Below, piece after piece: positions 8,054 to 62,810 of a stretch of 64,000 nucleotides of DNA. The position numbers and the translations under genes are program-made. The notes beneath the pieces are model-generated. The model was not told the DNA's origin. It did not search any database and saw only the letters and a program-made list of their open reading frames with translations. The stretch is from the NCBI GenBank assembly GCA_963820035.1, contig CAWFYK010000002.1, positions 724,524 to 788,523 on the forward strand. Direction: 5' to 3'. The DNA is from an uncultured Actinomycetota bacterium (GTDB lineage: Bacteria; Actinomycetota; Actinomycetes; Propionibacteriales; Nocardioidaceae). Positions within the stretch are counted from its first letter, which is position 1. Each line of letters begins with the position of its first letter.

Positions 8054-9681
8054 CCTCTATGACTGCTCCGACCACGCCAGCTGCCGCATCGTCGTACGAC
8101 GCCATCGTCGTCGGCGGCGGGCACAACGGTCTCGTCAACGGCGCCTATCTCGCCAAGTCGGGGCTTCGAACCCTCATCCTGGAGCGTCGCCACCTCGTCG
8201 GCGGAGCGGCCATCACGGAGGAGCTGGTCCCTGGCTTTCAGTTCACCACGTTCTCGTATGCGCTGAGTCTGCTGCGGCCGGAGATCATCCAGGAGCTCGA
8301 GCTGGTCAAGAACGGCTTCCTGCCGTTGCTCATGCCGTCGTCCTTCCACCCCACCGAGGACGGTGGCTATCTCTACCTGGGCGACGACCATGACCTCAAC
8401 ATCCAGGAGATCAAGCGGCACTCGCCCCACGACGCCGACGCCTACGACCGCTACCACCACGACCTCGACCGCGTCGTACAGGCCATCCGCCCGCTTTTCG
8501 ACAACCCGCCACCGAACATCTTCGGCAAGGACCCCGAGGACCTCGCCGACGTCTCCTGGCTGCTGACGCAGCTCGGCAGCGTCGAGAAGAAGGTGCTGCA
8601 CGACACGGTACGGTTGCTGACCGGCAGCGCGTCGGACTGGCTCGACGACTACTTCGAGAACGACGCGGTCAAGGCCTACCACGCCTCCTCGAGCATCATC
8701 GGCTCGAAGGTCGGGCCGATGTCACAGGGCTCCGGGCTGGTGCTGCTTTTCCACAAGATGGGCGAGCACGATGGACATCTCGGCTCCTGGGCGTTCCACA
8801 AGGGCGGCAACGGCGGGTTCACGCAGGTACTGGCCCGCGCCGCCCAGTCCTATGGCGCCGAGATCCGGCTCGAGTCGGCCGTGACCGCCGTGATCACGAA
8901 GGAGGGCCGCGTGACGGGAGTCGCCCTCGAGGACGGCACGGAGTTTCATGCGCCGGTCGTCGTGTCGGCGCTCGACCCGCGCCGGACGTTCCTCGAGCTG
9001 GTGGAGCCGCGCGAGCTCCCCGGCGACCTCGTCGACAGCATCGAGCGCTTCCGGTTCCAGGGAACGTCGGCGAAGGTGAACTTCGCGCTCGACGGCCTCC
9101 CGACCTACCCGGCACTGCCCGACACGTCTGACCACTACGGCGGGTTCGTCAACATCGGCCCCACCATCGAGTACGTCGAGCGGGCGTTCGACGACGCGAA
9201 GTACGGCTGGTACAGCAAGCGGCCCTTCATCGACGGGGCGATCCAGTCCGTCGTCGACCCTGACATGGCACCCCCCGGGAAGCATGTGATGTCGTGCTTC
9301 GTCCAGTACGCGCCGTACCACCTCAAGAACGGCGACTGGGACAGCGAGCGGGACCGGTTCGGCGACACCGTGCAGGCGGTGCTGGAGTCGCATTTCCCGG
9401 GCTTCGGAGATCTCGTCCTGCATCGCGAGGTCGTGACCCCGCTCGACATCGAGCGGGTCACCGGGCTCAGCGAAGGCAACATCTTCGCAGGCGAGTTCCT
9501 GGCACCCCAGATGTACTTCTTCCGGCCGGCACCGGGCTGGAGCCAGTACCGCACCCCGATCGACGGCTACTACCAGTGCGGGTCCGGGACGCATCCCGGT
9601 GGCTGCGTCATCGGGTCACCGGGCAGGCTTGCCAGCATGCGCATCCTGCAGGACCTGGCTCAGAGCGACAGCAGAGGCTGA
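8050..9681 (+). CDS. Phytoene-desaturase-family (CrtI/PYROXD2-like) NAD(P)/FAD-dependent oxidoreductase
   Basis: N-terminal YDAIVVGGGHNGLVNGAYLAKSGL dinucleotide fold and C-terminal YQCGSGTHPGGCVIGSPG. The start overlaps the upstream stop (ATGA at 8050-8053). Confidence 0.75.
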   Translation: MTSMTAPTTPAAASSYDAIVVGGGHNGLVNGAYLAKSGLRTLILERRHLVGGAAITEELVPGFQFTTFSYALSLLRPEIIQELELVKNGFLPLLMPSSFHPTEDGGYLYLGDDHDLNIQEIKRHSPHDADAYDRYHHDLDRVVQAIRPLFDNPPPNIFGKDPEDLADVSWLLTQLGSVEKKVLHDTVRLLTGSASDWLDDYFENDAVKAYHASSSIIGSKVGPMSQGSGLVLLFHKMGEHDGHLGSWAFHKGGNGGFTQVLARAAQSYGAEIRLESAVTAVITKEGRVTGVALEDGTEFHAPVVVSALDPRRTFLELVEPRELPGDLVDSIERFRFQGTSAKVNFALDGLPTYPALPDTSDHYGGFVNIGPTIEYVERAFDDAKYGWYSKRPFIDGAIQSVVDPDMAPPGKHVMSCFVQYAPYHLKNGDWDSERDRFGDTVQAVLESHFPGFGDLVLHREVVTPLDIERVTGLSEGNIFAGEFLAPQMYFFRPAPGWSQYRTPIDGYYQCGSGTHPGGCVIGSPGRLASMRILQDLAQSDSRG

Positions 9682-9812
9682 CCGAGTCTGCGGGCCCCTT
9701 GGCTCGAGGACGGCGGAAACTTGGGTCGTCACCGGGGAGTGTTCGACGCCCCGCCGACGTTGACCTCCGATGCCGGGGTCGTCCGGCGTCCGCGATCAGT
9801 GAGGAGCCCAGC

Positions 9813-10721
9813 ATGAAGGCAGTGCAGTTCGCAAGGTATGGCGGTCCGGAGGTCCTCGAGGTGGTCGACGTCGAAGAGCCGCACGCCGGTCCAGGGCAGG
9901 TCCGCATCGCGGTGAAGGCCGCCGGAATCAACCCCATCGACTGGAAGCTGCGAAGCGGTGCGTTGGCCGAGGCGATGCCGCTCACCCTGCCGGCCGGCAC
10001 GGGGCTGGATGCCGCCGGTGTCGTCGATGAGGTTGGCGAGGGAGTCACGGGCGTGGCCGTGGGGGACCCCGTCTTCGGGACGGCGGCACGTGGGGCGGTC
10101 GCGGAGTACACCGTCCTGAGGGAGTGGGTGCACAAGCCCGAAGGGATGTCGTTCGAAGAGGCGTCCGGTCTGCCCGTCGCCACCGAGACGGCCCGCCGAG
10201 CACTGAACCTGCTGGGCGTGCGCGCGGGTGACACGTTGCTCATCAACGGCGCCTCCGGTGGGGTCGGCCTGGCGACCATCCAGTTCGCGCGTGCCGCTGG
10301 AGCGAACGTCATCGCCATCGCGAGCGAGCCCAACCACGACTACCTTCGATCGCTCGGTGCCGTGCCGACGACGTACGGCGACGGCCTGGTCGAGCGGGTC
10401 AGGGCACTCGCCCCGGACGGGGTCGACCAGGCTTTCGATGTCGCCGGGTCCGGCGTACTCCCAGAGCTCGTCGAGATCACCGGTGATGCGAGCAAGGTGC
10501 TCACCATCGCCGACTACAGCGCCGAGCAGTACGGCGTGCGGATCACCGGAGGAGGCTCGGAAAGCGCGCCAGAAGGACGGCAGGAGGCCGCCGACCTCTT
10601 CGAACGCGGCCTGTTCACCCTTCCGGTCGCCGAGACGTTCGGCTTCGAGGATGTGGCAACGGCGCACGAGAAGAGCCAAGCCGGCCACGTCCGCGGCAAG
10701 TTCGTCATCACCGTTCCCTAG
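9813..10721 (+). CDS. NADPH:quinone oxidoreductase / zinc-type alcohol dehydrogenase superfamily protein
   Basis: MKAVQFARYGGPEVLEVVDVEEPHAGPGQVRIAVKAAGINPIDWK and LINGASGGVGLATIQFA. GAGGAG lies 6 nt upstream of ATG 9813. Confidence 0.8.
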   Translation: MKAVQFARYGGPEVLEVVDVEEPHAGPGQVRIAVKAAGINPIDWKLRSGALAEAMPLTLPAGTGLDAAGVVDEVGEGVTGVAVGDPVFGTAARGAVAEYTVLREWVHKPEGMSFEEASGLPVATETARRALNLLGVRAGDTLLINGASGGVGLATIQFARAAGANVIAIASEPNHDYLRSLGAVPTTYGDGLVERVRALAPDGVDQAFDVAGSGVLPELVEITGDASKVLTIADYSAEQYGVRITGGGSESAPEGRQEAADLFERGLFTLPVAETFGFEDVATAHEKSQAGHVRGKFVITVP

Positions 10722-10725
10722 CAGC

Positions 10726-10857
10726 CCGCCGAACCGTCACCTTCTTACCGCCGAACCGTCACCTTCTTACCGCCGAACCGTCACGTTCTTACCGCCGAAC
10801 CGTCACCTGCTTACCGCCGAACCGTCACGTTCTTACCGCCGAACCGTCAAGAAGTTC
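10726..10857. repeat. R22-A left arm, locus 1: 6 tandem 22-bp units CCGCCGAACCGTCACCTTCTTA
   Basis: Units start at 10726 + 22n. The last unit is the variant CCGCCGAACCGTCAAGAAGTTC. The array begins 4 bp after the qor-like stop codon. Confidence 0.95.
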
Positions 10858-10915
10858 CCGGCATGACGCCTCCGCGAGCAGCTCAAACAGCCGAGAGAAG
10901 AGATGGCGGCTGGAC

Positions 10916-11047
10916 TGCAAGAACCTGACGGCTCGACCGGAACAACCTGACGGCTCGACCGCAACAACCTGACGGCTCGACCGGAAGAACATGACGGCTC
11001 GACCGGAAGAACATGACGGCTCGAGGGTAATTACCTGACGGCTCGGC
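10916..11047. repeat. R22-A right arm, locus 1: 6 tandem 22-bp units GGAAGAACATGACGGCTCGACC (diverged inverse of the left arm)
   Basis: TGACGG anchor at 10926, 10948, 10970, 10992, 11014 and 11036. The last unit overlaps the 3' codons (RRAVR-stop) of the 11031..12317 ORF. Confidence 0.95.
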
Positions 11048-12317
11048 GAAGGCGAGCGACCGTCCGGCGTACGACCGGGTTGCGGCCGAGCCGCGCACGG
11101 ACCCCGGTCTGCCAGGAACGCGCGGTGGCCGGCCGGGCCCGCTCGTCCGCCACCAGCCCGTCGATCCGCTTCTGCTGACGCTCGACGCGTCGCAGCAGCT
11201 TGTCGCGCTCGGTCGTCAGTGCCTCGACCTGGTGACCGAGCTCGTCACCTTCCTGCCGAAGCTCGACCGCGTTGAGGACCATGCCGATGAGTCCCCCCGA
11301 CGCCGCCTGGAGCAGCTCCCGCTCGGTGGCCTCCGCCGGGTCGACGACATCGGACGGAGGATGCTCGGCTGGCACCAGCTCGGCCAGATCGCCTTCCACT
11401 CGGACGCCCGAAGTCTCGATCCCGGCGATCATCATGCGAGCGCGGTTGCGCACCCAGCCCTGCTGCTCGGGCGAGAGCGCGAAGCGCGGCTCCAGGCCGG
11501 CTCTGGTCGCGATGAGCGCTCCGCCCAGAGCGCCCCGGTAGCCATAAGGCTTCTCTGTTGCCATCCCCGGGTACTCGAGATTGAGCTGTCTCATCAGCTC
11601 GGCCGAGTGGGCGCCGAGCGACGAGTTGACCAGCGTCTCGGGTTGCTCGAGGCCCGTCATCGGAATCCCGAGCACCGAGCCGATGCGCCCGACGACGATC
11701 TCGGGAGTGGTTCCGGTGGGCGGCACCGTCACCACGGTGATCCGGTCGAGGGGGACCACCTGCTGCCATTGAGCGAAAATCGTCGTCACGTCGTGGACCT
11801 TCCAGAACCAGTCGCGCAGTCGAGTGGCGTCGCTCGCGGCCGCATCGCCGGATGGGGCATCCTCGTCGCCTGCCGGGGTGCCGTCAGAGCAGACGGCCGC
11901 CGCGAAGTCGTTCCAGCCGACGGTCTTGCCGCCCTTGATCGTCGTCTGCCAATGCGAGGGGATCAACTGGGCCGGATCCCGCACCGTGATGACGACGTTG
12001 AGCTCGACGTGCCTGAACCCATGCACGATGGTCCGGACCGAACGGGTTCCGCCACCGGCGATGAGCTCGTTGACGATCATCACGTCACCGTCGTGCTGGT
12101 TGACCTGGCGCACCAGCCGACGCCAGGTGTTGCCCCCCGGAGCGTCCGCCTTGGACATGCGCCCCAGCAGGTCCCGCACCGCGTCGTAACGGATGGTGCC
12201 GGCCACCCACAGCAACCCTTCCTCGGCAAGGCGTTGCGCGTTGAGCTCACCAACCTGTTGGACGTATGACGTCCCGGTCTTCATCTCGCCGATGTGCAGG
12301 AAGACCCGTCGCGCCAT
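11031..12317 (-). CDS. Hypothetical protein with a sulfotransferase-like N-terminal P-loop motif and a C-terminal coiled-coil-like region
   Basis: 428-aa ORF. HIGEMKTGTSYVQ resembles the 5'-PSB loop of sulfotransferases. The family call is tentative. Confidence 0.45.
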   Translation of the reverse strand: MARRVFLHIGEMKTGTSYVQQVGELNAQRLAEEGLLWVAGTIRYDAVRDLLGRMSKADAPGGNTWRRLVRQVNQHDGDVMIVNELIAGGGTRSVRTIVHGFRHVELNVVITVRDPAQLIPSHWQTTIKGGKTVGWNDFAAAVCSDGTPAGDEDAPSGDAAASDATRLRDWFWKVHDVTTIFAQWQQVVPLDRITVVTVPPTGTTPEIVVGRIGSVLGIPMTGLEQPETLVNSSLGAHSAELMRQLNLEYPGMATEKPYGYRGALGGALIATRAGLEPRFALSPEQQGWVRNRARMMIAGIETSGVRVEGDLAELVPAEHPPSDVVDPAEATERELLQAASGGLIGMVLNAVELRQEGDELGHQVEALTTERDKLLRRVERQQKRIDGLVADERARPATARSWQTGVRARLGRNPVVRRTVARLRRAVR

Positions 12318-12364: not shown

Positions 12365-13456
12365 ATGACAACCTGGGTGGGAGATCGCGACAGAGATACG
12401 GCGGTGGGTCATGATGTCCCGATGGATGTCCGAGTCGAGGTCGCGGAGGGAACGGCATTCGAGGTGCTGGTCGCCGCCGCTGCGGTCGCCGACGCCGACT
12501 GGCGAGACGCTTTCACGACCGGTGCCGCCCGCTACGCCGAGGCACTCGCGATGGCAGGACCGGAGTTCGTCCGACGAGTAGCAGGCTTCGGACGCTTCGG
12601 TTGGCTCAACCTCGTGGGACTGCTGACGAGGCACCCTCAGCCATGGGATCTCGGTGCGCTGATCTCCGCCGTACGCGAGTCGGATCCCGTTGCCCTGCAC
12701 CTCATCGCGGTGGGTGGTGACCGGCAGCAGCTTGTCGCCGTGGTGGACGAGCAGACGATCCTGGCCGCAGTTGCAGGTGACCAGGCGGCGCGACGCGAGC
12801 TGACTGCCGCGCTCGCGTCCGACGACCTGGTCATCGATGGCACCCCGTGGCTGGTCACGGGTGAAAGCGCCGAGCTGCAACGGGCCTACGTCGAGGTGCT
12901 GGAGACCTGGCGAGAGCTGCTGCTGGCGACCTCCGATGAGAAGGCACTGGCCGATGACCTGCACCGGATGGCGGACTCGGCCCGCATGCGGCTGGCCACC
13001 GCCCATGGCCAGGACTACCTCAGGGAGACCATCGGTGGAGTGCACTACTCCCCCGCCGGCCTGGACCGGGTCCTGGCTGTCGCGTCGCCCGAGGTGACGC
13101 CCGTCATCGTCGTCGTCGACGGGCGCGACGAGACGGTGATCCTGCATCCTCCTCGGGAGGAGAGGCAGTCCGCGGGGCAGTCCTCCCAGCGGTTGCTGGC
13201 GCTCAGCCGGGCAGTGGGCGACAAGACCCGGATGCGCCTCGTGACAGAGCTCCGAGACGGTGAGCGCGGGGCCATCGAGCTGGCTCAGGCACTCGGTGCC
13301 CCGCGTACGACGCTGCTCCACCACCTCGCGATCCTGCGTGCCGCCGGCCTCATCCATGTCGCCGTCACCCCGGGCGACGCGACCATCTACCGACTGCGCC
13401 CCGAGGGCTTCGCCGAGCTGTCCCGCTCGGCCGCCGAGTTCATACCAACCGAGTAA
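12365..13456 (+). CDS. ArsR/SmtB-family winged-helix regulator with a long N-terminal domain (DUF5937-like)
   Basis: C-terminal LSRAVGDKTRMRLVTELRDGERGAIELAQALGAPRTTLLHHLAILRAAGLI is an ArsR-type HTH. The start is uncertain; MDVRVEV at 12422 is possible. Confidence 0.65.
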   Translation: MTTWVGDRDRDTAVGHDVPMDVRVEVAEGTAFEVLVAAAAVADADWRDAFTTGAARYAEALAMAGPEFVRRVAGFGRFGWLNLVGLLTRHPQPWDLGALISAVRESDPVALHLIAVGGDRQQLVAVVDEQTILAAVAGDQAARRELTAALASDDLVIDGTPWLVTGESAELQRAYVEVLETWRELLLATSDEKALADDLHRMADSARMRLATAHGQDYLRETIGGVHYSPAGLDRVLAVASPEVTPVIVVVDGRDETVILHPPREERQSAGQSSQRLLALSRAVGDKTRMRLVTELRDGERGAIELAQALGAPRTTLLHHLAILRAAGLIHVAVTPGDATIYRLRPEGFAELSRSAAEFIPTE

Positions 13457-22381: not shown

Positions 22382-22572
22382 AAAACTCTCGGATCGTCGT
22401 ACCGAAACTCTCGGATCGTCGTGCCGAAACTCTCGGATCGTCGTGCCGAAACTCTCGGATCGTCGTACCGAAACTCTCGGATCGTCGTACCGAAACTCTC
22501 GGATCGTCGTGCCAAAACTCTCGGATCGTGGTGCCGAAACTCCCGGATCGTGGTGCCGAAACTCTCGGATCG
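22382..22572 (+). repeat. R22-B single-arm array: 9 tandem 22-bp units (GAAACTCTCGGATCGTCGTACC / ..GTGGTGCC)
   Basis: TCGGATCG anchor at 22389 + 22n (n=0..8; unit 8 carries TCCCGG). The last unit runs straight into the stop codon of the GroES-like gene (22573-22575). Confidence 0.95.
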
Positions 22573-22914
22573 TCAGAGGTAGAGGCCGGTGGCGCCTTCT
22601 TCGACGCGTTCGGAGGCGACGGCGTGCAGGTCGCGCTCGCGGAGCAGGATGTACATGTCGCCGCGCACCTCGACCTCGGCCTTGTCCTCGGGGTCGAAGA
22701 GCACCCGATCGCCCGCCTCCACGGTGCGGACGTTGGCCCCGACACCGGCCACCCGCGCCCAGGCGAGCCGGCGGCCCATCATCGCAGTCGCCGGGATGAC
22801 GATCCCGGCCGAGGACTTGCGCTCACCGGCCTCGGCGTCGAGCTGGACGAGCACCCGGTCGTGGAGCATCCGGATCGGCAGCTTCTCGACCGGAGTTGGT
22901 GTGTTCTTCGTCAC
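22573..22914 (-). CDS. GroES-like co-chaperonin family protein (non-canonical)
   Basis: IRMLHDRVLVQ..., SAGIVIP, GDRVLF, GDMYILLRERDLHAV follow the GroES pattern. It is not adjacent to a groEL. Confidence 0.55.
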   Translation of the reverse strand: MTKNTPTPVEKLPIRMLHDRVLVQLDAEAGERKSSAGIVIPATAMMGRRLAWARVAGVGANVRTVEAGDRVLFDPEDKAEVEVRGDMYILLRERDLHAVASERVEEGATGLYL

Positions 22915-23778: not shown

Positions 23779-23861
23779 GCCAGAGTGGTGGAATTGGCAG
23801 ACACGCGGGCTTTAGGTGCCCGTGCCCTTTGGGCGTGAGGGTTCGAGTCCCTTCTCTGGTA
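23779..23861 (+). tRNA. tRNA-Leu (anticodon UAG), class II with a long variable arm; no encoded CCA
   Basis: Acceptor GCCAGAG/CTCTGGT, anticodon stem CGGGC/GCCCG with loop TTTAGGT, variable arm GCCCTTTGGGCG, T-arm GAGGGTTCGAGTCCCTT. Confidence 0.9.
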
Positions 23862-23884
23862 CGACGAGAGCGTGTGCTCCGTGG

Positions 23885-32986: not shown

Positions 32987-33054
32987 GGCGCCGACCCTAT
33001 CGCCGGGCTCGAGACGGGCCGGACCCGATCGGCCGCGCCCATCAGGGGCCCCTG

Positions 33055-33100
33055 CCCGGTGGCCAGCCCGGTGGCCAGCCCGGTGGCCAGCCCGGTGGCC
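33055..33100. repeat. 12-bp tandem repeat CCCGGTGGCCAG, about 3.8 copies
   Basis: Units at 33055, 33067 and 33079, with a partial unit at 33091. Lies in the rph / ECF-sigma divergent intergenic region. Confidence 0.9.
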
Positions 33101-33149
33101 ATATCCGGTCGCCGCGCATCGCCGGCTCGGCGGCCCCGGACGAACTGCC

Positions 33150-33191
33150 GTGACGGGTTTGGCGTGACGGGTTTGGCGTGACGGGTTTGGC
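33150..33191. repeat. 14-bp tandem repeat GTGACGGGTTTGGC x3, immediately upstream of a -10-like GATAAT
   Basis: Units at 33150, 33164 and 33178. GATAAT at 33203-33208 sits 6 nt before the GTG start of the sigma factor (33215), suggesting a leaderless mRNA. Confidence 0.85.
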
Positions 33192-34434: not shown

Positions 34435-34660
34435 GCAACCATCCGAGAGTTTCGGCACCACCATCCGAGACTTCCGGCACCACCATCCGAGAGTTCCGGT
34501 ACGACGATCCGAGACTTCCGGCACCACCATCCGAGAGTTCCGGCACCACCATCCGAGAGTTCCGGCACGACGATCCGAGACTTCCGGCACCACCATCCGA
34601 GAGTTCCGGCACCACCATCCGAGAGTTCCGGTACGACGATCCGAGACTCCCGGCATCGGC
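34435..34660. repeat. R22-B composite copy 1, left arm: 10 tandem 22-bp units (ACCACCATCCGAGAGTTCCGGC type)
   Basis: ATCCGAG anchor at 34441 + 22n (n=0..9) with no phase slips. Two sub-types are interleaved (ACCACCATCC / ACGACGATCC). Confidence 0.95.
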
Positions 34661-34924
34661 ATGGCCGGCTGCGGGGTCCCCTCTGTCAAGCGGCGTGCGT
34701 TGGTCGGGACGTGAAGAACAGCGGTGACGGCGGCTTTCGAGCTGCTCGTGTTGGTATGGCGCCGCGCGTCTGGGCCGGTGAACACAATCACGTTCGCAAA
34801 CAAAGAAGTTCGGCGCCAGTGCGACGGAACCACCTCGAGGGCCGTTGCGTCACTGCCGTTGTTCACGTCCCGAGCAACGCACGCCGCCTGAAGGAAGCGA
34901 CCCGCAATCGGGCTGTGCCGCAGG
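34661..34924. other. R22-B 264-bp core, copy 1 (internally palindromic, non-coding)
   Basis: Identical by eye to 41403-41666. Contains 43-nt imperfect inverted arms around a 118-nt, less GC-rich centre. Confidence 0.85.
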
Positions 34925-34925
34925 G

Positions 34926-35227
34926 TCGGATCGTGGTGCCGGAACTCTCGGATCGTCGTACCAAAACTCTCGGATCGTCCTACCAAAACTCTCGGATCGT
35001 GGTGCCGGAACTCTCGGATGGTCCTGCCAAAACTCTCGGATCGTACGTACCAAAACTCTCGGATCGACGTGCCAAAACTCTCGGATCGTCCTACCAAAAC
35101 TCTCGGATCGTCGTACCAAAACTCTCGGATCGTCGTACCAAAACTCTCGGATCGTGGTGCCAGAACTCTCGGATCGTGGTGCCAGAACTCTCGGATCGTG
35201 GTGCCAGAACTCTCGGATGGTCGGGAG
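34926..35227. repeat. R22-B composite copy 1, right arm: one partial plus 13 tandem units (GGAACTCTCGGATCGTGGTGCC type)
   Basis: TCGGATCG anchor at 34948 + 22n. A single 23-bp unit shifts the phase by +1 from 35059. The array ends 18 bp before the MBL stop codon. Confidence 0.95.
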
Positions 35228-40956: not shown

Positions 40957-41402
40957 CCGACGATCCGAGACTTTCGGCACCACCATCCGAGAGTTTTGGT
41001 ACGACCATCCGAGAGTTTCGGCACCACCATCCGAGAGTTTCGGTACGACGATCCGAGAGTTCCGGCACCACCATCCGAGAGTTCTGGCACCACCATCCGA
41101 GAGTTCTGGTACGACGATCCGAGAGTTCCGGCACCACGATCCGAGAGTTCCGGCACCACCATCCGAGAGTTCCGGCACCACCATCCGAGAGTTCCGGCAC
41201 CACCATCCGAGAGTTCCGGCACCACCATCCGAGAGTTCCGGCACCACCATCCGAGAGTTCCGGCACCACCATCCGAGAGTTCCGGCACCACCATCCGAGA
41301 GTTCCGGCACCACCATCCGAGAGTTCCGGCACCACCATCCGAGAGTTCTGGCACCACCATCCGAGAGTTCTGGCACGACGATCCGAGACTTCCGGCACCA
41401 CC
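40957..41402. repeat. R22-B composite copy 2, left arm: 20 tandem 22-bp units
   Basis: ATCCGAG anchor at 40963 + 22n (n=0..19) with no phase slips. Eight consecutive units (41161-41336) are identical. The array starts 4 bp after the pncB stop. Confidence 0.95.
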
Positions 41403-41666
41403 ATGGCCGGCTGCGGGGTCCCCTCTGTCAAGCGGCGTGCGTTGGTCGGGACGTGAAGAACAGCGGTGACGGCGGCTTTCGAGCTGCTCGTGTTGGTATG
41501 GCGCCGCGCGTCTGGGCCGGTGAACACAATCACGTTCGCAAACAAAGAAGTTCGGCGCCAGTGCGACGGAACCACCTCGAGGGCCGTTGCGTCACTGCCG
41601 TTGTTCACGTCCCGAGCAACGCACGCCGCCTGAAGGAAGCGACCCGCAATCGGGCTGTGCCGCAGG
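41403..41666. other. R22-B 264-bp core, copy 2
   Basis: Base-for-base equal (by eye) to 34661-34924 at a constant offset of 6,742. Inverted arms at 41429-41471 and 41590-41632 are 38/43 complementary. Confidence 0.85.
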
Positions 41667-41828
41667 GTCGGATCGTGGTGCCGGAACTCTCGGATCGTGG
41701 TGCCGGAACTCTCGGATCGTGGTGCCGGAACTCTCGGATCGTACCAAAACTCTCGGATCGCCTACCGAACTCTGGATCGCTACAAAACTCTCGGATCGTA
41801 TCGTCGTACCAAAACTCTCGGATCGTCG
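41667..41828. repeat. R22-B composite copy 2, right arm: about 7 units, progressively degenerate
   Basis: TCGGATCG at 41668, 41690, 41712 and 41734 is in phase. After that come irregular units at 41753, 41771 (TCTGGATCG), 41791 and 41818. Confidence 0.85.
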
Positions 41829-41829
41829 A

Positions 41830-41850
41830 GGGAGGGGAGGGAGGGGAGGG
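41830..41850 (+). other. G-quadruplex-type motif GGGAGGGGAGGGAGGGGAGGG
   Basis: Five G3-4 runs separated by single A residues, between the right arm and the DUF1697 stop codon (41851-41853). Confidence 0.6.
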
Positions 41851-46893: not shown

Positions 46894-47047
46894 CCGTCGA
46901 GCCGTCACCTTCTTACCGCCGAACCGTCACCTTCTTACCGCCGAACCGTCACCTTCTTACCGCCGAACCGTCACCTTCTTACCGCCGAACCGTCACCTTC
47001 TTACCGCCGAACCGTCACCTTCTTACCGCCGAACCGTCAAGAAGTTC
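46894..47047. repeat. R22-A left arm, locus 2: 7 units (1 degenerate, 5 perfect CCGCCGAACCGTCACCTTCTTA, 1 terminal variant)
   Basis: Perfect units start at 46916 + 22n (n=0..4). The terminal variant CCGCCGAACCGTCAAGAAGTTC (47026-47047) is the same as at locus 1. Confidence 0.95.
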
Positions 47048-47090
47048 CCAGTACGACGCCCCGCGCGGGAGCGTCATATCGTTGGCCGAC

Positions 47091-47288
47091 GGAACAAACC
47101 TGACGGCTCGACCGGAAGAACATGACGGCTCGACCGGAACAACCTGACGGCTCGACCGCAACAACCTGACGGCTCGACCGGAACAACCTGACGGCTCGAC
47201 CGGAAGAACATGACGGCTCGACCGGAAGAACCTGACGGCTCGACCGGAACAACCTGACGGCTCGACCGGAAGAACATGACGGCTCGCC
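47091..47288. repeat. R22-A right arm, locus 2: 9 units GGAAGAACATGACGGCTCGACC / GGAACAACCTGACGGCTCGACC
   Basis: TGACGG anchor at 47101 + 22n (n=0..8). The array ends 5 bp before the hppD stop codon (47294-47296). Confidence 0.95.
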
Positions 47289-47293
47289 GGAGG

Positions 47294-49192
<1,899 letters not shown>

Positions 49193-50252: not shown

Positions 50253-50825
50253 CTACTCCGAGAGGGCAGCCGCCGAGCGGCGCGCTCGGTCGACGCTCCG
50301 CTCGGCCCGGTCGACGAGATCAGCTCCGGATCCCGCGGCAGCGACGTTGATCGAGACCAGCCGCGCCGCAGCGCGGGTTGCCGCCTCCGCCAGCAGGAGC
50401 CCAGTCGCGCAGTCGCCACGCAACCTGCGGTTGCCCTCGACCAGCAGCCTGCCTGCGAGCTCGGCTGCCTGCGCGCCGAGCTCGGCCGTCTCAGTCGGCA
50501 CCTCCGAGGCTTCCCGAAGGGCGTCCTGAAGACCGACTGCCTCGCACTCGCGCGAGGTCGGCCGATCTCCTCGGGCTGCGACGCCCGCCGCGATCACCTT
50601 CCCGTAGGCCCGGCTGTCCGCATCCGCGAGCTGGACGGCCCGGAGCCGGAGTGCGTCGGCGCGGTTAGCCAGCAGCTCGGAGTCGGCCACCGAGTCGGCG
50701 GAATAGCGTGCCGTCATCGCGACCAACCCGGCGGCGAGTGACACGGCGATCGCGGCGACCGCTCCACCGCCCGGAGCCGGCGTCCGCTCGGCGACCTCGT
50801 CGATGAAGCGGCTGAGGTCCGTCAA
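50253..50825 (-). CDS. Cyclodeaminase/cyclohydrolase family protein (FTCD C-terminal-like)
   Basis: FIDEVAERTPAPGGGAVAAIAVSLAAGLVAMTARY. No in-frame ATG nearby. TTG at 50825-50823 overlaps the fhs stop, so the start is uncertain. Confidence 0.6.
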   Translation of the reverse strand: MTDLSRFIDEVAERTPAPGGGAVAAIAVSLAAGLVAMTARYSADSVADSELLANRADALRLRAVQLADADSRAYGKVIAAGVAARGDRPTSRECEAVGLQDALREASEVPTETAELGAQAAELAGRLLVEGNRRLRGDCATGLLLAEAATRAAARLVSINVAAAGSGADLVDRAERSVDRARRSAAALSE

Positions 50826-52516
50826 AACAGCCCGACCGTCTCGCCGTTCTCGTCGATGTCGATGTGGGCGGCGGCCGGGTCGGAGCCAAGGCCCGGCATG
50901 GTGCGCATGTCGCCGCAGATCGGGTAGATATAGCCGGCACCGACCGATGCGCGCACCTCGCGGACCGGCAGCGTCCATCCGGTCGGGGCGCCCTTGAGCT
51001 TCGGGTCCGACGAGAGCGACAGGTGCGTCTTCGCGATGCAGATCGGCAGGTTGCCGAAGCCGGCCTTCTCGTACTGGTCGAGCTGCCGGCGCGCGGCCAC
51101 CGAGTAGTCGACGTCGGCGGCGCCGTAGATCTCGGTGGCGATGGTCTCGATCTTCTGACGCAGGGGAACGTCGTCGGGGTAGAGCAGCTCGAACCGACTG
51201 GGCTCCTCGGCGGCCTCGGCGACAGCCTCGGCGAGCTCGATCGCTCCTCGCCCTCCGTCGGCGAAGTGGTTCGACACCGCACATCGGGCACCCGCCTGCT
51301 CGGCGATCTCCCGCACCGCCGCGACCTCGCTCGGGTGGTCGTCGGTGAAGGAGTTGAGGGCTACGACGGGCGAGACGCCGTGCCGGCGTACGTTCTCGAT
51401 CTGCTTGATGAGGTTCGCGGCGCCCGCCTGCACGTCGTCGACGTTCTCGGCGAAGAGGTCGTCGGGCAGCGGGCGGCCGGCGACGATGCGGTAGTTGCCG
51501 GAGTGCGCCTTGAGCGCGCGCACGGTCGCCACGACCACCGCCGCATCGGGGGCCTCACCGGCGACCCGGCACTTGATGTTGAAGAAGCGCTCGGCGCCCA
51601 TGTCGGCCCCGAACCCCGCCTCGGTGACCACGTAGTCCCCACATCGCAAGGCGATCAGGTCGGCCAGCACCGAGGAGGTGCCGGTCGCGATGTTGCCGAA
51701 CGGGCCGCCATGGACCAGGACGGGTGTGTTCTCGATCGTCTGCAGCAGGTTGGGTTTGATGGCCTGCCGCATCAACACCGTCATCGCGCCGGCGGTGTTG
51801 AGCTGCTCCGCTGTCACTGGTGCGCCGTCCTTCGTGTAGCCCACGACGATCCGGCCGAACCGCTCGCGGAGATCGCGGAACGATGTCGCCAGCCCCAGTG
51901 TCGACATCACCTCCGACGCCGCGGTGATGTCGAAGCCGGTCTCCCTGGGTACGCCGTCCAACCGGCCGCCGAGGCCTGTCACGATGCCGCGAAGCGCGCG
52001 GTCGTTGATGTCGAGGACTCGGCGCCACGTGATGCTGTAGGGGTCGATCCCCAACGCGTTGCCCTGGTAGATGTGGTTGTCGAGCATCGCACTCAGCAGG
52101 TTGTGTGCTGTGGTGATGGCGTGGATGTCACCCGTGAGGTGGAGGTTCAGCTTCTCCATCGGGACGACCTGGCTGTATCCCCCACCCGCTGCGCCGCCCT
52201 TGATGCCCAGCGTCGGACCCATAGACGCCTGGCGCAGCACGGCGACGGCTCGACGGCCGATATGGCTCATCCCTTGGGAGAGTCCCACCGCGGTCGTCGT
52301 CTTGCCCTCGCCGAGCGGGGTGGGGGTGATGGCGGTGACGACGACGTACTTCGCCCGGGGCCGGTCGGCGAGCTCCTCGATGGCATCGAGACTGACCTTC
52401 ATCACGTCGCGGCCATAGGGCTCCAGCAGGTGGCTGCCGAGGCCCATGTCGCCTGCGATGTCCTCGATGGGCTTGAGGGTGGCGGCGCGGGCGATCTCCA
52501 GGTTTCCGAGGGCCAT
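50822..52516 (-). CDS. fhs: Formate--tetrahydrofolate ligase
   Basis: VVTAITPTPLGEGKTTT, PSMGP.LGIKGGAAGGGY, EAGFGADMGAE.FFNIKCR, PICIAKTHLSLS. Confidence 0.9.
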   Translation of the reverse strand: MALGNLEIARAATLKPIEDIAGDMGLGSHLLEPYGRDVMKVSLDAIEELADRPRAKYVVVTAITPTPLGEGKTTTAVGLSQGMSHIGRRAVAVLRQASMGPTLGIKGGAAGGGYSQVVPMEKLNLHLTGDIHAITTAHNLLSAMLDNHIYQGNALGIDPYSITWRRVLDINDRALRGIVTGLGGRLDGVPRETGFDITAASEVMSTLGLATSFRDLRERFGRIVVGYTKDGAPVTAEQLNTAGAMTVLMRQAIKPNLLQTIENTPVLVHGGPFGNIATGTSSVLADLIALRCGDYVVTEAGFGADMGAERFFNIKCRVAGEAPDAAVVVATVRALKAHSGNYRIVAGRPLPDDLFAENVDDVQAGAANLIKQIENVRRHGVSPVVALNSFTDDHPSEVAAVREIAEQAGARCAVSNHFADGGRGAIELAEAVAEAAEEPSRFELLYPDDVPLRQKIETIATEIYGAADVDYSVAARRQLDQYEKAGFGNLPICIAKTHLSLSSDPKLKGAPTGWTLPVREVRASVGAGYIYPICGDMRTMPGLGSDPAAAHIDIDENGETVGLF

Positions 52517-52776
52517 GCGGGGCTGTCCTTTCGGTCGTGGGTCGTACGTCGGCCGGGCCGCCGGGTGTGTCTCTCACCGGGTCACCGCGGCCACGCGCGC
52601 CGATCGTACGCTCATCGCGGCTCGTGCGGGGGTACGACGAGGTGACACGCTCGATTGCGGAGAACGCAGGTTCTCGAGCACCAGAATCCTGCGCGTCCCG
52701 CCTAGACTCGATCGCGACGGGGCAGGCAGGCGCCAATCGGCGAGCAGCCGCGAGCAGCCGTGACGACACGGGAGGG

Positions 52777-55038: not shown

Positions 55039-55097
55039 GCGCACCATCCTCCACCGACCGTCTCGAAGGCACGGACCTGCTGGACCATGCTGGACTG

Positions 55098-55154
55098 CGG
55101 TAGAGGCCATCAGCGAAGTGCACGTCGCGGGTCAAGGCGAGCCTCATCGCCTGT
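55098..55154 (-). promoter_or_regulatory. Fluoride riboswitch (crcB RNA motif)
   Basis: Minus-strand RNA: ACAGGCGAUGAGGCUCGCCUUGACCCGCGACGUGCACUUCGCUGAUGGCCUCUACCG. It shares GGCGAUGAGGC.CGCC and CUGAUGGCCUCUAC with the Thermotoga petrophila fluoride riboswitch as I recall it. Located about 60 nt upstream of the crcB-DUF190-crcB operon. Confidence 0.85.
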
Positions 55155-55196
55155 GCAACGAGTCTGCCCCAGACCACGGGGCTAGGCAAGCGAGAG

Positions 55197-62561: not shown

Positions 62562-62571
62562 GAAGATATCT

Positions 62572-62810
62572 CCTTCTCACGCCTGTGAGGTGAGCTGTCG
62601 GGTTCGAGCGAGAAGGTGCCCGGCCGTCAAAGGACGACTTAACCCCAAGCATGCCTACGGAAGACCGTTTCGATGCAGAAGAGTGGTTCCCCCACTTCTA
62701 CCCCTGAATGAGAGTTTCTGTGATTGGCGATTGGGTCGTAGTCGACACGGGGTAGAACTCGGCGTCCGTCGACCACGCTCTTCAGTTTTGGGTCCCGAGG
62801 ATCTAACCAC
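62572..62810 (-). promoter_or_regulatory. Probable cyclic-di-AMP riboswitch (ydaO/yuaA motif) in the 5' leader of the NlpC/P60 gene
   Basis: The minus-strand RNA contains CGGGACCCAA, GGGGUAGAAG, GGGGGAACC, UGGGGUUAAGUC and AACCCGACAGCUCACCUCACAGGCGUGAGAAGGAG. Compare Bacillus subtilis ydaO: GGGGGACCCA, GGGGUGAAUC, ACCCGAAUCCGUCAGCUAACCUCGUAAGCG. Boundaries are approximate. Confidence 0.6.

Follow-up and report, generated by a model that had tools for sequence, protein, structure and literature searches.

In the 64-kb window (the whole stretch of Nocardioidaceae DNA that was analysed), the spacer between two convergent genes is filled by a repeat element, R22-A locus 1 (10726-11047), in which six 22-bp units are followed by a short core and then by six to seven units in inverted orientation. 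This element is probably a gene-less, non-autonomous mirror-array element carrying binding sites for an AbiEi-nuclease protein, in a relationship comparable to that between REPINs and RAYTs. Mirror-array elements tied to a gene for an AbiEi-Vsr/DUF559 nuclease are a category defined in this analysis. R22-A shares with them the period, the mirrored layout and related units; the features that mark a full-length element, a nuclease gene and a TCCACAG motif between the arms, are absent from it. Because neither lies between its arms, R22-A is classed as a gene-less form, like locus L024 described below. The family is widespread in actinobacteria and apparently undescribed; no prior description of the association between arrays and nuclease was found in the literature searched, whose coverage was incomplete.

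Tandem Repeats Finder (TRF) resolved the left arm as 5.6 copies of CCGCCGAACCGTCACCTTCTTA at 10726-10849 (95% matches) and the right arm as 6.3 copies of a 22-bp unit at 10907-11045 (88% matches). Both arms are free of indels and keep a period of exactly 22 bp. CCGTCA occurs six times in the left arm (positions 10734+22n), and TGACGG six times in the right arm (positions 10926+22n), together with a degenerate TGGCGG at 10904. The layout of array, core and inverted array with an exact 22-bp period, which an earlier note had read from the letters of this DNA, is thereby borne out, including its coordinates and unit positions. The pattern GANCCGTCA(N13)x3 has 20 matches in the window, compared with 0.00 in 100 shuffles. 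When the right unit is reverse-complemented, it is identical to the left unit at 16 of 22 positions, the same value as reported before; none of 2000 shuffled pairs reached this value. Common to both arms are CGARCCGTCA and a loose TTSTT. The units are contiguous and arranged head to tail, without the unique spacers of similar length that separate CRISPR repeats, and no inverted repeat is present inside the R22-A unit; a palindromic TGACCCGTCA core is found only in some relatives.

Some details of the earlier description needed correction. The right arm had been given as six copies of GGAAGAACATGACGGCTCGACC; there are indeed six units at these positions, but only two have this exact sequence, while the others read GGAACAACC, GCAACAACC or GGGTAATTACC. 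The proposed 58-bp spacer is heterogeneous. Its first ~35 nt (AGAAGTTCCCGGCATGACGCC...), which comprise the end of the last left unit and the start of the core, are common to loci 1 and 2, the rest of the core is unrelated, and a degenerate unit already starts at 10904. Neither a coding remnant nor a TCCACAG motif was found in the core of locus 1. The placement of the element between the stop codon of the qor-like gene and the convergent open reading frame (ORF) was correct, and the ORF end even overlaps the right arm. Its last five codons (R A V R and stop; 11031-11047) come from the outermost right-arm units, and the TAA stop is supplied by the unit variant GGGTAATTACC.

R22-A shares its architecture with R22-B, a second 22-bp family of the window, and a second R22-A copy is present as well, both as noted before. 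It had further been proposed that CCGGAA, at the junctions of the right-arm units, is a recognition element common to both families and repeated every two helical turns. The strict period does fit protein binding, but CCGGAA is not the conserved part. At locus 1, only 3 of the ~6.5 right-arm units contain it; neither the left arms nor the solo R22-B arm do, and many units of the window's own arms lack it. A genome repeat census, which was the proposed check for conserved CCGGAA phasing, detected CCGGAA or TTCCGG in one of 129 arrays of other genomes, among those listed, and in none of the 72 arrays flanking the nuclease gene. Furthermore, R22-A and R22-B units agree at 11 of 22 positions in the best of 44 registers, which equals the mode of the shuffled null. 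Since the hexamer is rare in arrays and the match between the families lies at the null mode, a common CCGGAA recognition element is not supported. The conserved block is CGARCCGTCA, or more broadly GTYGAR. R22-B does resemble one sub-family within the A superfamily, GATCCGTCA, matching L021 and L059 at 15/22 positions, but this is suggestive only. Judged from these sequences, it is unlikely that a single protein binds both R22-A and R22-B, and each gene copy has its own unit sequence.

To survey related arrays, species-representative genomes were scanned for GANCCGTCA at three successive 22-bp steps, which yielded at least 88 loci. TRF detected at least 101 period-22 arrays with three or more copies at these loci. 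Each array is homogeneous, whereas between arrays the 12 nt outside the shared core differ. Among the matches listed, nearly all loci belong to Nocardioidaceae, Propionibacteriales and unclassified Actinomycetota metagenome-assembled genomes (MAGs), with cultured Nocardioides and Aeromicrobium included; about half of the arrays are solo arms, and 89 of 91 arrays are intergenic according to a crude gene caller. Most related sequences are MAGs, and one of these (MAG141) contains at least 31 array loci, one of them gene-bearing. Mirrored composites with gaps of 0-250 bp were found at no fewer than 19 loci, and the arms are head-to-head in 10 of 10 pairs with assignable orientation (seven from other genomes and three from the window). 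At four loci where the arms are 0.5-1 kb apart (L035, L089, L076 and L059), a single element with cargo was considered and rejected, as ordinary genes or two separate elements were found. CCGTCA-unit 22-bp arrays were also matched in Planctomycetota, Stellaceae, Gammaproteobacteria, Neisseriales and Sorangium (L014, L026, L044, L058, L074, L087); these may be distant relatives or chance matches.

The arrays frequently follow genes: in 47 of 93 cases the array start falls between -60 and +12 nt from a stop codon on the same strand, compared with 8% of random positions. This position raises the alternative that the arms simply pair as a long interrupted RNA hairpin or DNA cruciform, acting as a bidirectional terminator or stabiliser of convergent genes, with protein binding being irrelevant. 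In agreement with it, the R22-A region folds to -138.9 kcal/mol (z-score of -7.9 relative to shuffles) and the outer flanks of arrays are C-rich and G-poor. However, such folding follows from any inverted array. At the 6 of 22 positions where the two arms are unlike, the oppositions are C.C, C.A and A.C rather than wobble pairs, and these arm-specific differences are conserved between the window and the gene-bearing locus L070 instead of being compensated. In addition, solo arms have no partner to pair with, R22-A locus 2 lies upstream of a gene start, and R22-A has no Rfam family (gathering threshold, every array), promoter-like site or U-tract terminator. A purely structural role is therefore improbable.

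The flank composition was determined in the outer 30 nt of 107 arrays (L002-L092 and the window) on the unit sense strand, where C accounts for 46-48% and G for 22%; in the control, the 20 nt past the stop codons of array-free genes, C and G account for 38.6% and 34.5%, respectively. Frequent runs in these flanks are CCCCTCCC / GGGAGGGG, e.g., at window positions 41829-41850. The C-rich outer flank may reflect a target preference or be part of the element end. An outer/inner asymmetry in arm orientation toward neighbouring genes was also looked for with the crude gene caller, but the shares facing a 3′ end were 65% and 63%, which amounts only to the general 3′-end preference.

The central finding, which the earlier note had missed, is the position of a nuclease gene between related arrays. 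At eight of the loci listed in the DNA scan (L002, L008, L010, L030, L060, L070, L075 and L084), an ORF of ~300 amino acids lies between an inward-pointing array and its inverted partner. The encoded protein matches the Pfam families AbiEi_4, AbiEi_1, REase_MTES_1575 and DUF559, and PADLOC reports an AbiEi match over its first ~200 residues (E to 1e-22). Its AlphaFold (AF2) model, with a predicted local distance difference test score (pLDDT) of 89.4, matches the AbiEi antitoxin 6y8q (E 1.4e-5), while the last 100 residues match the catalytic domain of I-Bth0305I (3r3p, TM 0.73, root-mean-square deviation (rmsd) 3.2). Weaker matches of the model are NGO0050/DUF559, PvuRTs1I and Vsr. The gene product is an AbiEi-type winged-helix DNA-binding module with a Vsr/DUF559 (PD-(D/E)XK) nuclease fused to it. 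Of 75 full-length members, 73 keep the D..ExDG..H motif. The family comprises 577 clusters at E<=1e-30 and ~12,500 at E<=1e-10 in a 50%-identity library.

The association of gene and arrays was tested independently by searching metagenome contigs with two peptide patterns of the nuclease protein and no DNA information, which gave 80 independent loci. Arrays with a period of 21-23 were present within 350 bp upstream of the gene at 47 of 70 and downstream at 45 of 58 loci with the respective flank. The array density was 2.09/kb within 350 bp of the gene and 0.065/kb elsewhere on the same contigs, a 32-fold difference. Where both arrays exist, they are mirror images in 34 of 34 loci (84% reverse-complement identity compared with 49% direct identity). 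The period is 22 in 87 of 101 gene-flanking arrays, 21 in nine, and 31-32 in five, the latter beside the most divergent proteins. The unit sequences vary from locus to locus, which suggests a large number of specificities. Few arrays are remote from the gene (L095, L097, L142); these are composites without a gene, and their units are similar to the ones beside the gene. Units of gene-less arrays also recur in the gene-flanking arrays of their own genome or contig (L030/L065, L008/L048, L142, L097). Many family members occupy 1.0-1.4-kb contigs by themselves, a pattern to be expected from assembly breaks at repeated arrays.

Between the upstream array and the nuclease gene, a TCCACAG heptamer, often as TTGTCCACAGG, is nearly invariant (L095-L174; L070:85-100; L175:5938-5950). 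It was found in 58 of 72 loci, where the expectation per 170 bp is 0.012; 10 loci have it in inverted orientation, and it does not occur in the gene-less cores of the window. The heptamer resembles the actinobacterial DnaA-box consensus, TTGTCCACA. Upstream of the nuclease gene, the motif TTGTCCACAG is conserved. In the complete genome of N. marinisabuli, the family gene is orthologous to that of L070 and carries short degenerate arrays on both sides; no AbiEii (DUF1814) nucleotidyltransferase partner is present among its neighbours, mdh and DUF3017-folD.

No transposase is encoded between or beside any of ~110 arm pairs; apart from ordinary small genes, only the AbiEi-nuclease gene was found there, and it is the only recurrent one. 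This argues against the arrays being the multiple subterminal transposase sites of a DDE-transposon miniature inverted-repeat transposable element (MITE) or foldback element, with the AbiEi-nuclease gene as frequent cargo. Such an element could account for the presence/absence polymorphism described below, and its inverted arms of repeated 22-bp sites would recall the ends of Mu and Tn7, which contain several phased ~22-bp MuA/TnsB sites. However, no target-site duplication is recognisable at the ends inspected, the TG...CA dinucleotides face the core and not the outside, and a search based on the nuclease protein recovers arrays at most loci, which makes this explanation very improbable.

A 22-bp spacing of direct repeats is also found in the iterons of the plasmids R6K, pPS10 and RK2, where it places the bound proteins on one helix face. 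That R22-A is of this type and marks a replication origin or partition site is scarcely credible. The window is chromosomal DNA of 68.5% G+C whose housekeeping genes include groES, NAPRTase, HPPD and a two-component system, it contains five such loci within 64 kb, MAG141 has at least 31, and no rep or par gene is adjacent. The window comes from the 552-kb contig_87978 of ENA metagenome assembly ERZ25039495, which has a 100% identical HPPD. Moreover, neither the element DNA nor the associated protein was matched in 72,556 plasmids and 50,697 phages, except for one weak match in Nonomuraea, to an 11.85-Mb record listed among the plasmids. Separately, a phage contig of IMG/VR (L001:2727-2792) has GACCCGTCAAC three times at 22-bp spacing inside an apparent replication-protein gene; this repeat is iteron-like and probably unrelated to the actinobacterial family.

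R22-A itself can be connected with gene-bearing loci. In Nocardioides sp. BWSM_104 (L070), the arm upstream of the nuclease gene consists of CTCGAGCCGTCAGGTTCGAACC, the R22-A right-arm type, and the downstream arm of TGACGGTTCGGCGGTTCAGAAG, the reverse complement of the left-arm type. Each arm type shares 15 contiguous identical bases with R22-A, and the positions that distinguish the arms (GTCGAG or GCCGAA, CAGG or CAC) are the same in both. Because L070 keeps these arm-specific positions, the 16/22 divergence of the arms is an inherited asymmetry, not decay. Units of L110, L118 and L008 match R22-A at 16-17 of 22 positions. In L024, a three-unit array and a four-unit inverted array stand 30 bp apart without any trace of a gene. 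The surroundings of this locus match those of the gene-bearing loci L146, L115 and L112 colinearly to the left and right, and the flanking genes have 78-90% amino-acid identity. A gene-less copy thus occupies the very site of its gene-bearing relatives, as a gene-loss origin predicts.

Comparison with the closest relative recovered (ERZ25039552 contig_67094), with a 90% identical HPPD and more than 20 kb of colinearity with the window, revealed that elements differ between close relatives. The relative is element-free at the junctions HPPD/kinase (98 bp apart), NAPRTase/DUF1697 (overlapping) and MBL/glyoxalase (10 bp apart), which correspond to R22-A locus 2 and the R22-B composites at 34438-35223 and 40963-41828. 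In turn, an R22-A-like array is present beside its malic-enzyme gene, at a site that is empty in the window; it comprises 13.6 units of perfectly identical sequence, followed by only two in inverted orientation. From its sequence, this strongly lopsided array is evidently a very recent expansion. A further mirrored family lies between crcB and an FGE-sulfatase gene in the relative, a site without element in the window. In the window, the cores of the two R22-B composites (34656-34925 and 41405-41667), 6.5 kb apart, have 100% identity over 263 bp despite unequal array lengths, which requires a recent copying process. Together, the presence/absence differences and the identical cores with unequal arrays indicate that elements are gained or lost on a short time scale and that arrays turn over fast. 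In a more distant relative (L094), 22-bp arrays are absent from the 21 kb examined, and intergenic tandem repeats of 52 bp (11.9 copies) and 68 bp (2.1 copies) are present (L094:167-783 and 12787-12931).

How the protein may engage these arrays is suggested by AbiEi and Rv2827c, which repress their own promoters by binding two to four 23-bp repeats (four in Rv2827c), with one monomer per repeat (PMC7319586). By analogy with this one-to-one binding, each 22-bp unit would most simply be the binding site of one protein monomer, and the fixed period would keep the bound proteins in phase. Each arm would then form a phased row of sites in which CGARCCGTCA recurs every two helical turns, and the remainder of the unit would decide which paralogue binds. 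In the full-length form, an inward-pointing 22-bp array is followed by ~100 bp with TCCACAG, the ~300-residue gene and the same array inverted. Gene-less composites such as R22-A would derive from gene-bearing ones via gene loss. They would then be carried along or spread in trans, as REPINs rely on a RAYT, and would be tolerated only in short spacers at gene 3′ ends. Arrays may lengthen and shorten through recombination or slippage. The fused nuclease may in addition cut at or near arrays, whereby host repair would drive their turnover and their spread to new intergenic sites.

The same autorepression by AbiEi and Rv2827c is also the main argument for a more conservative explanation, in which the AbiEi-nuclease only autoregulates via its flanking arrays. 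The gene-less arrays would in this case be orphan operators that titrate or position the protein and were spread by ordinary recombination, with the nuclease having no role in dispersal. Gene-bearing copies occupy conserved chromosomal sites, and no target-site duplication was seen, both of which fit such operators or decoys. Nevertheless, we regard this explanation as unlikely. The arrays are mirrored on both sides of the gene, although there is no promoter for the downstream one to control; in close relatives, non-orthologous sites hold gene-less copies by the dozens per genome; the identical R22-B cores need recent copying; and the nuclease motif is conserved.

Several observations weigh against the proposed dependence of R22-A on the AbiEi-nuclease. 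A hydrolytic PD-(D/E)XK nuclease alone cannot perform strand transfer. Gene-bearing copies keep their chromosomal positions across species, which fits a domesticated "master" gene and, just as well, a regulator that has operator arrays and does not move. Solo arms are not needed by a simple "two ends" model. Neither a target-site duplication nor a sharp terminus could be defined, because intergenic sequence has diverged too far in the nearest relative; none was visible at ~20 inspected ends, where filled and empty sites are likewise too diverged for base-level alignment. Homology between the R22-A core and the region after the upstream array of L118 did not exceed that of shuffles. Finally, the source genome would presumably still encode a cognate protein, but no homologue of the nuclease gene is present in the 64-kb window, and none of the 240 homologues listed from two protein searches is on contigs of the source genome; thus, a cognate protein of R22-A in this organism is putative.

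A bolder version, which we put forward only tentatively, is that these loci form a new class of bacterial selfish elements with a single, sequence-guided enzyme. Here, an AbiEi-tethered Vsr-like (PD-(D/E)XK) nuclease would cut at or beside the phased 22-bp arrays, and host repair would copy, move, expand and contract them. The repair could proceed by homologous recombination or by Ku/LigD end-joining, the latter being typical of Actinobacteria. The gene-less R22-A and R22-B populations would then depend on paralogous "master" genes, in a symbiosis like that of REPINs and RAYTs but built from wholly different parts.

The REP/REPIN-RAYT system is similar to the mirror arrays in several respects. 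In both, intergenic DNA contains dozens of short repeats, which lie mainly at the 3′ ends of genes and often form inverted pairs; a chromosomal gene of low copy number and vertical inheritance has inverted copies of its cognate repeat on either side; and several repeat families of different sequence exist in one genome. In contrast, the enzyme here is AbiEi plus a Vsr/DUF559 nuclease, while a RAYT (TnpA_REP) is an IS200/IS605-like HUH Y1 tyrosine transposase. The units here are non-palindromic 22-bp sequences repeated head-to-tail 3-20 times, while REPs are single hairpin-forming palindromes. Also, the pairing of protein and repeat in mirror arrays is putative. As neither the enzyme nor the repeat type matches, the likeness is one of logic and not of membership. 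With AbiEi, the protein shares its N-terminal ~200 residues by sequence and fold, and the unit size is close to the 23 bp bound per monomer (PMC7319586). Unlike in the AbiE type IV toxin-antitoxin system, a fused nuclease replaces the AbiEii nucleotidyltransferase partner, and long tandem arrays on both sides of the gene plus many gene-less loci replace the few promoter sites.

The nuclease domain superimposes on I-Bth0305I, one of the Vsr-like EDxHD homing endonucleases, and in both cases a small, selfish-looking gene has its own DNA-binding module. However, the array-associated gene lies outside introns and inteins, is repeat-flanked and occupies conserved chromosomal sites, and homing systems have no counterpart of the gene-less repeat copies. 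Compared with foldback transposons, Mu and Tn7, the inverted arms of several phased, here putative, ~22-bp protein-binding sites are alike; no DDE transposase is present, a target-site duplication was not found, site numbers are far higher and variable, and solo arms are common. Unlike plasmid iterons, the arrays are chromosomal, dispersed and mirrored, lack a Rep gene and have no match in plasmid collections.

If this explanation holds, many hypothetical proteins annotated as "DUF559 / AbiEi-domain" would gain a function and a DNA target, and the dense 22-bp arrays that break short-read assemblies of Nocardioidaceae would be explained. The arrays would also represent a second, mechanistically unrelated case of a repeat paired with a domesticated enzyme, beside REPINs and RAYTs. 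Natural protein-site pairs, each with its own 22-bp specificity, would constitute a ready set of orthogonal DNA-binding modules. The hypothesis is directly testable in cultured hosts, among them N. marinisabuli, N. acrostichi, N. taihuensis, N. panacihumi and Aeromicrobium sp. 9AM.

Table 1. Positions of the R22 elements, their flanking genes and two related features in other genomes (window coordinates unless a record is named).
Feature	Coordinates	Strand	Description
R22-A locus 1, left arm	10726..10857	+	six units of CCGCCGAACCGTCACCTTCTTA; the sixth diverges past CCGTCA; starts 4 nt after the qor-like stop
R22-A locus 1, core	10858..10903	.	between the arms
R22-A locus 1, right arm	10904..11047	-	degenerate unit and six units; minus-strand reading GGTCGAGCCGTCA(G/T)GTT(G/C)TTCC
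qor-like flanking gene	9294..10721	+	zinc-type alcohol dehydrogenase / quinone oxidoreductase-like; stop TAG 10719-10721
Convergent flanking ORF	11031..12317	-	no Pfam match; G+C at third codon positions (GC3) 0.85; 3′ end overlaps right arm
R22-A locus 2	46894..47291	.	left arm 46894-47039 (6.6 units), core 47040-47089, right arm 47090-47291 (9.2 units)
R22-B composite	34438..35223	.	unit ATCCGAGAGTTCCGGCACCACC; arms 34438-34655 and 34926-35223; 270-bp core; architecture as R22-A
R22-B composite	40963..41828	.	arms 40963-41404 (20 units) and 41668-41828
R22-B solo arm	22383..22574	-	8.7 units; abuts stop codon of groES (22573-22914, minus strand)
R22-A-like array of closest relative	L092:1331-1629		unit GTTGAGCCGTCAGGAAGTTCCG
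N. marinisabuli family gene	CP059163.1 616220-617173		between mdh and DUF3017-folD

The listed start of the qor-like gene is probably too far upstream. R22-A locus 2 is situated between the start of a HisKA_3 kinase gene and the stop codon of HPPD (47294-47296). The R22-B core contains its own inverted repeat of ~40 bp (AAGCGGCGTGCGTTGGTCGGGACGTGAAGAACAGCGGTGACG / complement), and neither an Rfam match nor a convincing coding remnant was found in it. The possibility that the R22-A and R22-B cores are coding remnants of the nuclease family was rejected, as blastx gave matches of only E~0.1 that contain a stop codon. In Nocardioides acrostichi (L050:5306-5565), two unrelated 22-bp arrays, GACCCGCGAGGGGTCGCGAATC x4.7 and GTGACGGGTCACGTGAAAACTG x6.5, are separated by a 14-bp gap. 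This double array looks like a hybrid of two families, and the first unit resembles the gene-flanking arrays in L111.

Perfect short tandem repeats of other periods are present in the window as well, namely GCCCGGTGGCCA x4 at 33054-33101 and CGTGACGGGTTTGG x3.1 at 33149-33191; the latter includes TGACGG, yet has a 14-bp period. The gene for formate-tetrahydrofolate ligase (window ~50822-52526; L090:11617-13321) was called as three pieces of 319, 43 and 141 amino acids. The fragmentation points to a pseudogene or to frameshift errors introduced by long-read assembly, and calls for caution with indels in arrays such as 41729-41828. The window further contains a c-di-AMP riboswitch (62565-62739, minus strand), a fluoride riboswitch upstream of crcB genes (55094-55160, minus strand) and a tRNA-Leu gene (23779-23862, plus strand).

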